Assembly (NCBI GenBank): GCA_964613715.1
Contig: CAZTJK010000001.1
Coordinates: 9,990 to 73,989 of the forward strand
DNA from: an uncultured Candidatus Saccharibacteria bacterium
GTDB taxonomy: Bacteria; Patescibacteriota; Minisyncoccia; Phycocordibacterales; GWA1-40-21
DNA: 64,000 nt
Reading direction: 5' to 3'
Shown piece by piece: positions 319-59,937 of this stretch; within the stretch, counting starts at the first letter, position 1; every line of letters starts with the position of its first letter. The position numbers and the translations under genes are program-made. The notes beneath the pieces are model-generated. The model worked only from the letters and a program-made list of their open reading frames with translations, did not search any database and was not told the origin of the DNA.

Positions 319-346
319 TTGACATATTTTTGAGGTATGTTAAACT
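319..346 (+). promoter_or_regulatory. Sigma-70-type promoter: TTGACA (319-324), 16-nt spacer, extended -10 TGtTAAACT (338-346)
   Basis: The -35 hexamer is a perfect consensus and TGn precedes the TAAACT hexamer. A near-identical promoter occurs at 59909-59937. Confidence 0.6.
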
Positions 347-354
347 GATTTGGT

Positions 355-826
355 CGGAAGTTGTTCAATACAAGTTAAGGAGAAGAACATGAGGAAAACC
401 TTCAGGACAACCCTGAAATCCCTCTCGCTCAACCTGATCGCCGACCTGGCCACCGCGCCCGCCCGTTAGGGCCACCTTTCGCGGAGGCATTCGAAGTTCT
501 TTCGCAGACCAACAGAAAAATCCCGTGTCGGGAGAAAGGATAAGAAGATCACTCGGAACCTGAATGTTTGCTTGGTAGATTACTGACCACGTATTCAGGC
601 TAGTCGAATTAGTTCGAACCGCTGGTAGCATCTCTACCGTGCGCTGTATCAAGTCTTGGAGGTAAAATCCCAACGACCCACCAGCGCACATGATTTTCTT
701 GTTCTCCGAAGCGACCGAGATAAGTTAGGTGCCAACGCACCGAGTCACTAAGTGAGGTACGTCCCTCACACGGCTCATCTCGCGTCGCATTCTGGGACGG
801 CAGTAATAACTGCCGTTTTTTTATTG
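355..826 (+). ncRNA. Candidate structured non-coding RNA or dual-function transcript of unknown family, between a strong promoter and an intrinsic terminator, immediately upstream of dnaX
   Basis: No ORF longer than 26 aa lies in the promoter-defined orientation. The ORFs on the track (365..691 and 609..830, minus strand) overlap each other and have no recognisable similarity. There are many local hairpins, for example ggtgcCAACgcacc, ggtagCATCTctacc and gtgaggTACGTCcctcac, and a long-range cctgaat...attcagg pairing. The region ends in an intrinsic terminator at 797-823, 19 nt before the dnaX start. SRP RNA lies upstream of dnaX in many bacteria, but the GGAAGGAAGCAGC helix-8 motif was not found. 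Confidence 0.35.
797..823 (+). terminator. Intrinsic terminator: acggcag-taataa-ctgccgt followed by T6
   Basis: A 7-bp GC-rich stem is followed by tttttt at 817-822. Confidence 0.7.
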
Positions 827-841
827 CCAAAAAATGCTAGA

Positions 842-1891
842 ATGGCAGGCATGTCAGATACCGCGCTCTACAGAAAATACCGCCCGCAAAAATTTTCAGA
901 TGTCTTCGGCCAGGATCATGTAGTAAAAGTCCTCGAGTCTTCCATCAAGCTCGACCACATCGCCCATGCATATATCTTTTCTGGTTCACGCGGTACCGGC
1001 AAGACATCCATTGCACGTATATTCGCCCGCGAGCTTGGCACCAAAGACACTGATATCCATGAGATAGATGCAGCATCGAATACCGGCGTCGATGATATCC
1101 GCGCGCTCAATGAATCCGTGAGCACCCTGCCATTCGAATCGAAATATAAGGTCTATATCCTCGACGAGGCCCACATGCTCTCGAAATCCGCCTGGAATGC
1201 GCTCCTGAAAACGCTCGAGGAGCCACCAAAGCATGTAATTTTCATCCTTGCCACGACCGAGTTCAATAAGATCCCGGAAACCGTCGTCTCGCGCTGCCAG
1301 ACATTTTCCTTCAAGAAGCCGTCGCAAAAAATCTTGAAAGAAGTGATCGCGGCGATCGCGAAGAAGGAGAAATTCACCCTCGCACCCGCATCGCTCGAGC
1401 TTGTCGCTCTGCTTGGCGATGGCTCGTTCCGCGATGCGCAGAGCATCCTCCAGAAAGTGATGAGCGCCTCAAAAGATAACAAGATTACTCATGAGGAGGT
1501 GGAGCTCGTCACCGGCGCGCCGAAAGCAAGCCTGGTGAATGACTTTATCCACGCCATAGATGAAGGCAATCTCTCGCTCGGCCTTGGTGCAGTGGGGCAG
1601 GCAAGCGAAGCGAATATCGACATGCTTCTTTACTTCAGGTTGATTCTCGCAAAGATGCGCTCAATATTGCTTTTACGAACACTCAAAGGCTCGGAAGAGA
1701 AGCTTGCCGAGGAAATGACCGATACAGATTTTGCATTCATCAAAGCCCTGTCAGAAAAGAAAGACTCGAAAATAAATTCAGATACATTGCTCACCCTGCT
1801 GTCGTATTATGATATGGTGGCAAAAGCCGCCATCGCCGAGCTGCCGCTCGAGCTTGCACTTGCAAAACTTATCCCTGCAAAACAAGGATAA
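842..1891 (+). CDS. dnaX: DNA polymerase III subunit gamma/tau (short form, domains I-III only)
   Basis: MAGMSDTALYRKYRPQKFSDVFGQ, a Walker A motif GSRGTGKTS, DEAHML and SRCQ motifs. The ORF-track start at 752 would lie inside the upstream terminator, so the in-frame ATG at 842 (or 851) was used. At about 350 aa the protein lacks the tau-specific C-terminal domains. Confidence 0.9.
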   Translation: MAGMSDTALYRKYRPQKFSDVFGQDHVVKVLESSIKLDHIAHAYIFSGSRGTGKTSIARIFARELGTKDTDIHEIDAASNTGVDDIRALNESVSTLPFESKYKVYILDEAHMLSKSAWNALLKTLEEPPKHVIFILATTEFNKIPETVVSRCQTFSFKKPSQKILKEVIAAIAKKEKFTLAPASLELVALLGDGSFRDAQSILQKVMSASKDNKITHEEVELVTGAPKASLVNDFIHAIDEGNLSLGLGAVGQASEANIDMLLYFRLILAKMRSILLLRTLKGSEEKLAEEMTDTDFAFIKALSEKKDSKINSDTLLTLLSYYDMVAKAAIAELPLELALAKLIPAKQG

Positions 1892-3162: not shown

Positions 3163-3375
3163 ATGCAAAAACTAGCCACAAAAATATTCGTCTATTCATC
3201 GATTGTTTTCGGGATTATCGGGATGGCAGTAGTGCTGACATTGCCGAGCACTCAAGGGACGCAAACTTCAGATCTGCATATCGCCTTGATGAAGCTTTTG
3301 TTTGCGACAGTCTTCATCATATTGCCTTCATTCGCACTGAGTATTGCTGGTAAATATTTGAATAACAATCATTAG
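3163..3375 (+). CDS. Small two-helix membrane protein, hypothetical
   Basis: 70 aa with two hydrophobic helices. Leaderless architecture: TATACT at 3151-3156 lies 7 nt before the ATG. Confidence 0.45.
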   Translation: MQKLATKIFVYSSIVFGIIGMAVVLTLPSTQGTQTSDLHIALMKLLFATVFIILPSFALSIAGKYLNNNH

Positions 3376-9192: not shown

Positions 9193-10026
9193 GAGGAAAA
9201 AGGCGATGACGCCACCTGCCATGCAATATGCTGAAAACGGCAGAAGGGTTTTTTTCATGAAATATTTTTCAAGGAATTTCACGGAAAAGTAAGCGCTTGT
9301 GCCCGAAGCGACAGCGCCAATAAGAATCGGTAGGGTATTAAATGATGCGGCCGCCAAAAGAGGCAATTTCAAAGCAGAAGCGGCAAAAATAACCGGTGTA
9401 GCTAAGAGGAATGAAAAGCGGGCAGCGGCTGCATGATCAAGCCCGGCAAATAAGCCAGCACCGAGCGTCAGGCCGGTACGGGAAAAGCCTGGCAACAGTG
9501 CGACGCATTCCGCAAGTCCGATTTTCACTGCCTGCTTCCAAGTAAGCCTCGCGGCAGCCTGATCAGGATCAGTAGAAAGAGAATCTTGAGTCTTCATTCG
9601 GGCGCGTTCGAACACATCGAGCAGAATGCCGTTACCAATAAGAAACAAGGAAACGATAATCCCTGAAGAAAAGAGAAGCTTAAGCTTTTCCTCAAGCAAA
9701 AGGCCAAGCATGCCGACCGGCACTGTTGCAACAACGATGAGCCAGCCGAGCTTTGCGTAAGTATCGGCAGGATCAATCATGCGATTTTTAAGCGAACGAA
9801 ATATTCCTTTGAGAATAAGCAGCCAATCCTTCCGGAAAAACCACAGCAGCACGAGCGCTGTCGCAAAATGCGTTGCAACAACAAACACGAGGAAATAATC
9901 ACTTGATTGATCGATATGCCAGCCCAAAAGCTGCGGCAAGATGACTGAGTGGCCAAGGCTCGAAATGGGGAAAAGCTCGGTAAAGCCCTGCAGCGCGCCC
10001 ATGATGATGGTCTGAAGAAAGTCCAT
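9178..10026 (-). CDS. uppP: Undecaprenyl-diphosphatase
   Basis: MDFLQTIIMGALQGFTELFPISSLGHSV... is the BacA/UppP signature. Confidence 0.9.
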   Translation of the reverse strand: MDFLQTIIMGALQGFTELFPISSLGHSVILPQLLGWHIDQSSDYFLVFVVATHFATALVLLWFFRKDWLLILKGIFRSLKNRMIDPADTYAKLGWLIVVATVPVGMLGLLLEEKLKLLFSSGIIVSLFLIGNGILLDVFERARMKTQDSLSTDPDQAAARLTWKQAVKIGLAECVALLPGFSRTGLTLGAGLFAGLDHAAAARFSFLLATPVIFAASALKLPLLAAASFNTLPILIGAVASGTSAYFSVKFLEKYFMKKTLLPFSAYCMAGGVIAFFLLLIR

Positions 10027-42997: not shown

Positions 42998-43125
42998 GTA
43001 TTATCAAATTTTCTATCTTATGGCTCTATAGAGCCATATTATTCGTATCAGGACCTGCTAGACTATTGACATAAATAATTTACTATGCTATCATAGTATC
43101 AAATCCGTTTCGACGGGTTTTTATT

Positions 43126-43599
43126 ATGATAGAAATCATCACCACATCAATCTTCGTTTTTTCATCGATTTACAGCGCTCCGGTAACGGACGGGACTGAT
43201 ACTACGCCAATTGTGCCTCAGGTCCTTGCACCAAAGGCAGCAACGACCACTGCAGACATTCCGACAAACAAGGGAATTGAGGAGCAGGTTCGCAATTACT
43301 TCAAGGATGAACCGATCCTTGCGGACATTGCCCGCTGCGAATCAACCTTCCGTCAGTATGATGAGAATGGCAATATTCTTCGTGGCACAGTCAACAAGGG
43401 CGATATCGGCGTCATGCAGATCAACAAGTATTATCATGCCGATAAGGCGAAAAGCCTCGGCTATGACCTTGAGACGGTCGAAGGCAATATGGCCTATGCT
43501 CGATACCTCTACAACAAGGAAGGCGGCCAGCCATGGATCTCGTCATCGAAATGCTGGAGCAAGAGTACTGCTTCGTCAAATCAAGTAGCGATGAAGTAA
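43126..43599 (+). CDS. Secreted small lysozyme-like/SLT-like protein
   Basis: Signal peptide. ARCESTFRQY...GDIGVMQINKYYH matches the catalytic-Glu 'ES' and 'G-MQI' motifs of soluble lytic transglycosylases. Confidence 0.5.
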   Translation: MIEIITTSIFVFSSIYSAPVTDGTDTTPIVPQVLAPKAATTTADIPTNKGIEEQVRNYFKDEPILADIARCESTFRQYDENGNILRGTVNKGDIGVMQINKYYHADKAKSLGYDLETVEGNMAYARYLYNKEGGQPWISSSKCWSKSTASSNQVAMK

Positions 43600-59908: not shown

Positions 59909-59937
59909 TTGACAAAAATAATATAGTATGTTAAATT
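59909..59937 (+). promoter_or_regulatory. Sigma-70-type promoter: TTGACA, 16/17-nt spacer, extended -10 TGtTAAATT
   Basis: Near-identical to the promoter at 319-346, sharing aTACTTGACA ... gTATGTTAAA. Confidence 0.6.

Follow-up and report, generated by a model that had tools for sequence, protein, structure and literature searches.

Staphylococcus aureus RNAIII is 514 nucleotides (nt) long and carries the 26-codon hld near its 5' end. Here we describe a unit of similar layout in DNA from an uncultured Candidatus Saccharibacteria bacterium (GenBank assembly GCA_964613715.1, contig CAZTJK010000001.1, forward-strand positions 9,990 to 73,989). This whole stretch of 64,000 nt is called the window, and window positions are counted from its first letter. 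The unit lies directly upstream of dnaX, between a promoter at 319-346 and an intrinsic terminator at 797-823. It shares with RNAIII/hld and with Bacillus subtilis SR1/SR1P a strong promoter and terminator of its own, a length of a few hundred nt and a multi-hairpin 3' body, which here is predicted. Compared with RNAIII, the unit is ~470 nt long, and its 26-codon small open reading frame (sORF) starts ~37 nt from the predicted 5' end. The unit has no sequence or Rfam relationship to RNAIII or SR1, and a scan of 61 gene start regions in the window found no base-pairing target. Unlike delta-hemolysin, its peptide is not amphipathic, and the peptide seems unconstrained in related units.

In Gram-positive mRNAs, such as that of Bacillus thuringiensis cry3A, the stabilising Shine-Dalgarno sequence STAB-SD (GAAAGGAGG) and 5' hairpins act as stabilisers. 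The unit resembles these in having a hairpin near its 5' end, and strong Shine-Dalgarno sequences (SDs) in this locus family sometimes lack a usable open reading frame (ORF). The exact STAB-SD word occurs inside units of relatives, and the window has AGAAAGGAU. However, a STAB-SD belongs to the leader of a long mRNA that codes for protein; the unit encodes nothing sizeable downstream. Signal recognition particle (SRP) RNA (ffs/scr) is encoded upstream of dnaX in many phyla, including Firmicutes and Actinobacteria. The unit has the same place and is likewise an independent promoter-terminator unit, but it lacks the helix-8 motif and an Rfam match, occurs in 0-3 copies and is dispensable in relatives. 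Arrest leaders of the RAPP/RAGP type (SecM, ApdA, ApdP, CruR; motif definition from PMC12992588) also place SD-led short ORFs upstream of structured RNA. Proteomes strongly avoid RAPP, a motif known to arrest ribosomes (PMC12992588). The motif is confined to relatives, where KARAPP stands at or near the C-terminus of second mini-ORFs in loci L005 and L043. Such leaders regulate a downstream ORF, whereas the window's unit has neither a RAPP-like motif nor a downstream gene in its transcript.

On our best reading, the unit would be autonomous and, by prediction, highly transcribed, lies in a fast-evolving slot between dus and dnaX in one Candidatus Paceibacterota clade, and is neither a housekeeping RNA nor a dnaX leader. 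We tentatively favor a lineage-specific translated small regulatory RNA (sRNA) of the dual-function type.

A strong promoter and an intrinsic terminator bracket one sORF

The upstream gene dus (dihydrouridine synthase; Pfam match to PF01207) ends with its stop codon at 307-309, and 541 nt separate this stop from the dnaX ATG at 851. As the preliminary description had stated, a strong promoter and an intrinsic terminator bracket a region in this spacer. The sigma-70-type promoter at 319-346 (+) consists of TTGACA at 319-324, a 16-nt spacer, TG at 338-339 and TAAACT at 341-346. It scores 10/12 plus the TG, and transcription is predicted to start near G352/G353. When both strands of the window (128 kb) were scanned, seven sites scored at least 12, and three of the seven combined a perfect TTGACA with an extended -10, the promoter at 319-346 among them. 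The other two such promoters lie at 43066-43094 (+) and 59909-59937 (+); downstream of the former, a short hairpin with a T-run (...CCGTTTCGACGGGTTTTTATT) immediately precedes an ORF at 43126. No promoter-like site was found on the minus strand of the interval.

The terminator at 797-823 (+) is formed by ACGGCAGT at 797-804, the loop AATA, ACTGCCGT at 809-816 and a T-run at 816-822, giving a perfect 8-bp stem, a 4-nt loop and seven U. Because there is no terminator between the dus stop and the promoter, it must also stop read-through from dus. Upstream of the sORF is the Shine-Dalgarno AAGGAG at 377-382 (+), with a 6-nt spacer to the ATG. The promoter, SD and terminator of the unit are real and rare in this genome.

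The sORF occupies 389-469 (+), from ATG 389 to the stop TAG at 467-469, and encodes the peptide MRKTFRTTLKSLSLNLIADLATAPAR. In the predicted fold, the SD and the AUG had mean unpaired probabilities of 0.55 and 0.64, compared with 0.37 for the whole RNA. The SD-AUG region also gave the top local alignments between the window and its relatives (z 3-4.5 against shuffles). These signals suggest that the sORF is probably translated. Its length is about that expected of a chance ORF (about 21 codons), and the peptide, judged from its sequence, is without sign of constraint. It matched no Pfam or NCBIfam family and showed neither alignment nor similarity to the equally long peptide of L069. Its mean hydrophobicity is -0.07, it has no transmembrane segment, and it ends in TAPAR, with no RAPP-like motif (RAPP, RGPP, RAGP, RAPG). 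A peptide like phenol-soluble modulins (PSMs) or delta-hemolysin was considered and rejected on amphipathicity (p 0.58, vs 0.001-0.004 for controls), with delta-hemolysin (p 0.001) and PSM-alpha3 clearly positive.

The earlier view that this SD-led ORF is the only credible one in the unit, with no real protein gene present, held up. Neither strand of the interval yielded an ORF with a Pfam or NCBIfam match, and the two overlapping minus-strand ORFs are as featureless as first described. The one of 108 amino acids (aa) was rejected as a gene, having no homologue among 5.8 billion proteins and no Pfam match. The spacer was identical in a Logan assembly made independently for this organism, where gene callers placed no gene in it. 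No second copy of the interval was found elsewhere in the window. The ~325 nt from the sORF stop to the terminator are without an ORF, a long non-coding stretch for this compact window; several other large gaps of the window seem, by eye only, to contain small ORFs. No SD-led ORF was found between 470 and the terminator. A second SD-like element, AGAAAGGAU at 533-541 (+), has no usable start codon downstream and is partly sequestered (unpaired probability 0.36).

dnaX has a promoter of its own

All dnaX homologues align from ATG 851 and not from 842, making 851 the most likely start. The distance from the end of the terminator T-run to dnaX is thus 28 nt, which corrects the 19 nt given in the preliminary description. 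An extended -10, TGCTAGAAT, lies outside the unit at 835-843 and, with the start codon, spans 835-853 (+). Because this element ends 7 nt before the ATG, the dnaX mRNA is predicted to be leaderless, and with such a promoter for dnaX the upstream unit would be autonomous. No SD before the dnaX ATG was visible in the sequence by eye, so read-through RNA should translate dnaX poorly.

The same arrangement recurs in the window. A TGnTAnnnT ends 6-7 nt 5' of the start codon in dnaX and at least 10 other genes, including those starting at 3163, 5660, 11390(-), 14200, 20404(-), 20884, 21851(-), 42566 and 55670(-). Leaderless genes therefore appear to be common in this genome, as far as sequence can indicate. 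In relatives, dnaX follows the pattern seen in the window, with TGTTATACT or TGCTATAAT, 6 nt and then ATG. Their spacers carry TTGTCT 16-17 nt 5' of the dnaX -10, and TTTTTGTCTAAATTTT recurs directly 3' of terminators, for example in L004, L006, L012, L034 and L044. In these relatives the tail of the terminator thus seems also to serve dnaX as the -35/UP region of its promoter. Downstream of dnaX, Rfam and ARAGORN both identified a tRNA-Gln at 1941-2012.

The unit design recurs in relatives

We collected ~40 relative loci anchored on dnaX (72-84% aa identity). The closest dnaX relatives are Paceibacterota metagenome-assembled genomes, the best 84% identical, with none closer in the collections searched. 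The gene order dus, spacer, dnaX is kept in relatives. Spacer length, measured in 32 of them, ranged from 15 to 1557 nt and was at least 240 nt in 27/32. The four relatives L009 (spacer of 100 nt), L033, L037 and L038 (15 nt each) lack the unit.

Most relatives carry one to three units of like design in this spacer. Each opens with a near-consensus promoter (TTGACA or TTGACT, 16 nt, TGnTAnAnT) and a small hairpin, followed by a strong SD that leads an sORF of 10-49 codons. A second SD, GAAAGGAGG, is frequent and precedes a mini-ORF of 1-14 codons. The unit ends in a variable tail of 100-800 nt and an intrinsic terminator, after which comes the dnaX promoter. Tandem arrays of 2-3 units, each with its own promoter and terminator, occur in L005, L013, L015/L041, L029 and L030. 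The dus-dnaX slot thus behaves as a hotspot in which copy number varies.

The commonest k-mers in the relatives' spacers, besides words of the promoter, the terminator and the dnaX promoter, were AGAAAGGA, AAGAAAGGA and GAAAGGAG. Since wide sharing is limited to words of the promoter, the terminator and SDs of the AAGAAAGGAG type, selection acts on the expression signals. An alignment of whole units with MAFFT was meaningless at such divergence. That the window copy is an orphan is expected for a weakly constrained RNA, because the nearest relative's dnaX is only 84% identical.

Other cargo of the hotspot was also seen. In the sub-family with MKSRYGP sORFs, a hairpin module, GGAAGAUAACCCCGAAnUGGUUUCnUCCGUC, lies directly 5' of the terminator (spacer coordinates L005 ~425-470, L032 ~500-545, L043 ~275-320 and L034 ~290-335). 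A gene for a 63-68-aa protein (...TADPS[LQ]W-stop) without a Pfam family is present in L062 (771-962) and L064 (1368-1574), where it flanks an sRNA-like unit on opposite sides.

Related units point to constraint on RNA

Coding and RNA-level constraint can be compared in the trio L007, L008 and L039. Their dnaX proteins are 96-97% identical, and the identity at third codon positions (0.65-0.66) provides a near-neutral yardstick. The trio sORFs, at a nucleotide identity of 0.62-0.71, are no better conserved than neutral; their lengths are 23, 24 and 25 codons and their indels are in frame. From the stop codon to the second SD, identity rises to 0.78-0.83, including ~60 nt that are almost invariant. 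This core (GCCGGCCUGCGCUUUACGGUCCAAAAAUCCCGACAAGGUAACUACGACCGUGACGGCCAA) directly follows the sORF stop, at approximately 3641-3720 in L007, 3726-3816 in L008 and 1964-2050 in L039, and has no Rfam match. An in-frame sORF evolving at the neutral rate together with a conserved downstream stretch indicates RNA-level constraint: translation may matter, and the peptide sequence does not. Weak echoes of the core are present in L062, L064 and L068. Window positions 497-526 (CUUUCGCAGACC..AAAAAUCCCG) were considered as its counterpart and rejected, as the core model misses the interval.

Some peptide motifs in relatives are nevertheless kept via synonymous codon changes, namely KSRYGP (L005/L032/L044), IRGPTK-stop (L001/L062) and KARAPP (L005/L043); none of them is in the window peptide. 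KARAPP occurs in second mini-ORFs, MRKTRPSRKARAPP-stop in L005 (3085-3129) and MPDKARAPPCC-stop in L043 (152-187), and the two versions have four synonymous codon differences, including CGC vs AGA. No regulated ORF is evident downstream of these mini-ORFs. Taken across the clade, expression signals are clearly kept by selection, as are short islands of RNA in related units; peptide sequences are not.

A predicted two-stem module has possible counterparts in two relatives

Within the central domain of the window's unit, comparative support is confined to 639-690 (+). This stretch holds a two-stem module, GUGCGCUG, UAU, CAAGUC, (UUGG-AGGUAAAAUC-CCAA), CGAC, CCCAC, CAGCGCAC, with counterparts at 3799-3838 in L001 and 1954-1994 in L029. 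L001 and L029 themselves share a 46-nt island of 85% identity (E 1e-7) within otherwise unalignable tails. A covariance model built from L001 and L029 only placed its top match of the whole window at 641-687 (E 0.0028 within 310-850). Across the three sequences, 31/31 pair cells are standard and three pairs change on both sides; these pair statistics were matched by 17/500 shuffles, with the alignment fitted to the model. The data are suggestive of a module of ~45 nt common to the window, L001 and L029. A phage origin of the module was rejected, there being no match in viral contigs.

The module is part of a central multi-hairpin domain at 536-707 (+), which is predicted only and is present in both the minimum free energy (MFE) and centroid structures. 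The domain, which inverted repeat I1 also indicates, is closed by a predicted long-range helix of ~537-551 with 692-707 and also contains hairpins at 559-599, 604-617 and 624-638. In the MFE structure, a 5'-proximal hairpin (AAGUUGU-UCAAU-ACAAGUU, 357-376, +) lies directly 5' of the SD, and analogous hairpins precede the SD in L005, L006, L011, L015, L032 and L001. A predicted 3' domain at 708-790 (+), which inverted repeats I7 and I8 also indicate, has the closing stem GCGACCGAGAU / AUCUCGCGUCGC and the inner hairpins GGUGC-CAAC-GCACC and GUGAGG-UACGUC-CCUCAC. The GC hairpin GCCC-GUUA-GGGC, predicted at 461-472 (+), overlaps the sORF stop codon. Across the locus family, 23% of the stops of SD-led ORFs fall in a hairpin loop, compared with 12% of control stop triplets (p 0.024). 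As a defining rule, a stop codon in a hairpin loop was rejected: the trend is no more than weak, and the window copy does not pass under the strict criterion.

No housekeeping RNA family fits the unit

The preliminary description had proposed a stable housekeeping RNA (SRP RNA, RNase P RNA or transfer-messenger RNA, tmRNA) at this site upstream of dnaX, a proposal that our searches do not bear out. At the gathering threshold, Rfam found only tRNAs in the whole window and 16 relatives. At E<=10, the 651 nt of 250-900 gave only two noise matches, neither of them to RNase P, SRP, tmRNA or 6S RNA, and the L001 and L008 spacers gave noise only. ARAGORN found no tmRNA, its only call being the tRNA-Gln. 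The same description had allowed that no known family fits and that the unit could be something else, which agrees with these results.

Each family also differs from the unit in kind. RNase P RNA (RF00010/RF00011) is excluded by the lack of a model match and by the 0-3 units per locus, at odds with a conserved single-copy gene. An assignment by eye (GAGGAAAACC, GAGAAAGGAUAAG, GGUAAAAUCCC..CCCACC and CACACGGCUCAU, in the order CR-I to CR-V) was rejected, as it had no model score and the locus is dispensable. RNase P RNAs of the Candidate Phyla Radiation (CPR) can fall below Rfam thresholds and need sub-threshold searches (PMC8172020); at this locus there was no sub-threshold RNase P signal at all. 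For SRP RNA, no family matched at E<=10 and the helix-8 motif was not found. 6S RNA is about 150-200 nt, compared with ~470 nt here, and the predicted fold is multibranched, not a rod; Rfam gave no 6S match. A hypervariable spacer, from which the unit is sometimes absent, is incompatible with an essential housekeeping RNA. Some other structured RNA is possible but unproven.

A tentative dual-function reading and the points against it

The reading of the unit as a translated sRNA draws on near-consensus transcription signals, a canonical and relatively accessible SD-AUG, and the same design in most relatives. A short transcript with a promoter and terminator of its own, next to a separately promoted dnaX, fits a dual-function sRNA. 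Under this reading, the 5' sORF would be loaded with ribosomes, and its importance would lie in being translated rather than in the peptide. Translation of the sORF may protect or gate the RNA, much as transcripts of Gram-positive bacteria are protected by 5' hairpins and by stabiliser elements of the SD type. The functional part would be the multi-hairpin 3' body of ~325 nt, to which the module at 639-690 belongs; it would work in trans, as a regulator or by binding protein.

Several results weigh against this interpretation. By blastn and nhmmer, the window's unit could be aligned to no relative's locus among the ~40, and a hidden Markov model (HMM) of the trio core had no match in the window. 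The module match has only 13.5 bits, with E 0.33 window-wide. In a duplex scan against 61 gene start regions in the window, the RNA did no better than shuffled RNA. The fold is also equivocal. The preliminary description called the region hairpin-rich, and this holds against dinucleotide shuffles (z -4.9; 0/100 shuffles equally stable) but not against the genome itself, where the plus-strand fold is unremarkable among 848 GC-corrected 445-nt windows (z -1.1). On the same scale the untranscribed minus strand folds better (z -2.6); for 352-826 the antisense reaches a predicted -182.5 kcal/mol, vs -167.3 kcal/mol for the sense, and ranks with the lowest of the GC-corrected windows in the 64 kb. 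The antisense stability probably reflects the C/A-rich composition of the sense strand, because no minus-strand promoter was detected. A C- and A-rich transcript with an ordinary folding energy does not have the hallmarks of a structure-selected RNA, and thermodynamic modelling alone provides no mark of one.

The preliminary description took the absence of conservation in relatives as the test that would count against a conserved structured RNA, and by that test the idea nearly fails. The interval is unalignable, which counts against it, and what counts in its favor is the recurrent unit design and the ~45-nt module in two relatives. The other sign proposed there, a conserved homologue of the 26-aa peptide that would mark a small-protein mRNA, was not found.

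Competing explanations

The main rival is a plain small-protein gene, which makes the cationic peptide of 26 aa and whose last 325 nt are no more than a long, drifting 3' untranslated region (UTR) with the terminator. This explanation, which we regard as somewhat unlikely, would account for the canonical and accessible SD-AUG, for this region being the most similar part between the window and relatives, and for the in-frame indels of the trio sORFs. It would also account for KSRYGP, IRGPTK-stop and KARAPP being kept via synonymous changes in some relatives. However, the window peptide has no homologue or family and no amphipathic, transmembrane or other signature. The trio sORF evolves at the neutral rate while the downstream RNA is conserved, ORF lengths of 10-49 codons fit chance, and a functionless UTR of 325-900 nt would be surprising in a compact genome. 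An unlikely option is that the unit is a functionless or decaying insert, a transcribed remnant in a hypervariable cargo hotspot whose body drifts neutrally. The spread of spacers from 15 to 1557 nt with unrelated content, the absence of the unit from L033, L037, L038 and L009, the orphan status of the window copy and its ordinary folding energy against the genome background all suit such a remnant. Yet without selection, fast decay would be expected of the consensus promoter and its extended -10, the strong SD and the perfect terminator. The same expression signals are kept across the clade, and related units contain conserved RNA islands.

The remaining explanations are much less probable than these two. 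The place directly upstream of dnaX, and leader-peptide-like sORFs in relatives that include RAPP-type motifs in L005 and L043 (PMC12992588), could suggest a cis-acting leader or attenuator, with translation of the sORF controlling read-through of the terminator into dnaX. We consider this very unlikely, because dnaX has a separate promoter and is leaderless, 325 nt lie between the sORF stop and the terminator, and the dnaX of several relatives does without the unit. An upstream copy of the terminator's 3' stem strand (ACUGCCGU), the antiterminator partner, was not seen in a reading by eye, with no formal search. Read-through RNA would be poorly translated without a visible SD, and tandem units each have their own promoter and terminator. 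A locus of the type I toxin-antitoxin kind, making a small toxic peptide from a structured, stable mRNA, is equally improbable. It would fit a small structured mRNA with a 5' sORF at a variable, dispensable locus, and L004 does encode a clearly transmembrane peptide of 49 aa. The window peptide, however, is not hydrophobic (mean -0.07) and has no transmembrane segment, its SD is accessible and not sequestered, and the interval's minus strand has no promoter-like site. Least probable of all, and already close to refuted, is that the unit represents a highly divergent form of RNase P, SRP, tmRNA or 6S RNA. Such an RNA could be expected from the place of SRP RNA upstream of dnaX in many phyla, and the unit's length suits RNase P RNA or tmRNA. 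CPR RNase P RNAs can also score below Rfam thresholds (PMC8172020). Against it stand the empty searches at E<=10 in the 651 nt and in the L001 and L008 spacers, the negative ARAGORN result, a fold that is multibranched and not a 6S rod, and a unit that is unconserved among relatives with dnaX ~80% identical and varies from 0 to 3 copies.

Implications

In kind, the unit is an ordinary lineage-specific sRNA or sORF gene, and its clade context (the conserved slot, the tandems and the arrest-like mini-ORFs of relatives) is moderately interesting. The rule of thumb that a stable RNA lies upstream of dnaX fails in this clade. This caution is useful when genome completeness is judged from RNase P, SRP or tmRNA calls. 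Even if the unit is merely a drifting small-ORF gene, the analysis takes a false candidate off the list of divergent housekeeping RNAs.

If the translated sRNA is real, it comes with a recognisable place to search, namely the gap separating dus from a leaderless dnaX, and with marks to look for: a strong promoter, a mini-ORF led by an SD, and a terminator. A literature search found no paper on regulatory RNAs in CPR/Patescibacteria. A bolder proposal, and a long shot in our estimation, is that the dus-dnaX slot hosts an undescribed class of tandem-capable translated structured RNAs. In these, ribosome loading or stalling on very small ORFs that evolve freely, some with RAPP-type arrest motifs, would gate how a trans-acting body folds or how stable it is, so that they would serve as sensors of translation status, and the window's unit would be a divergent member. 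If true, this would mean RNA-based sensors in organisms with minimal regulatory repertoires.

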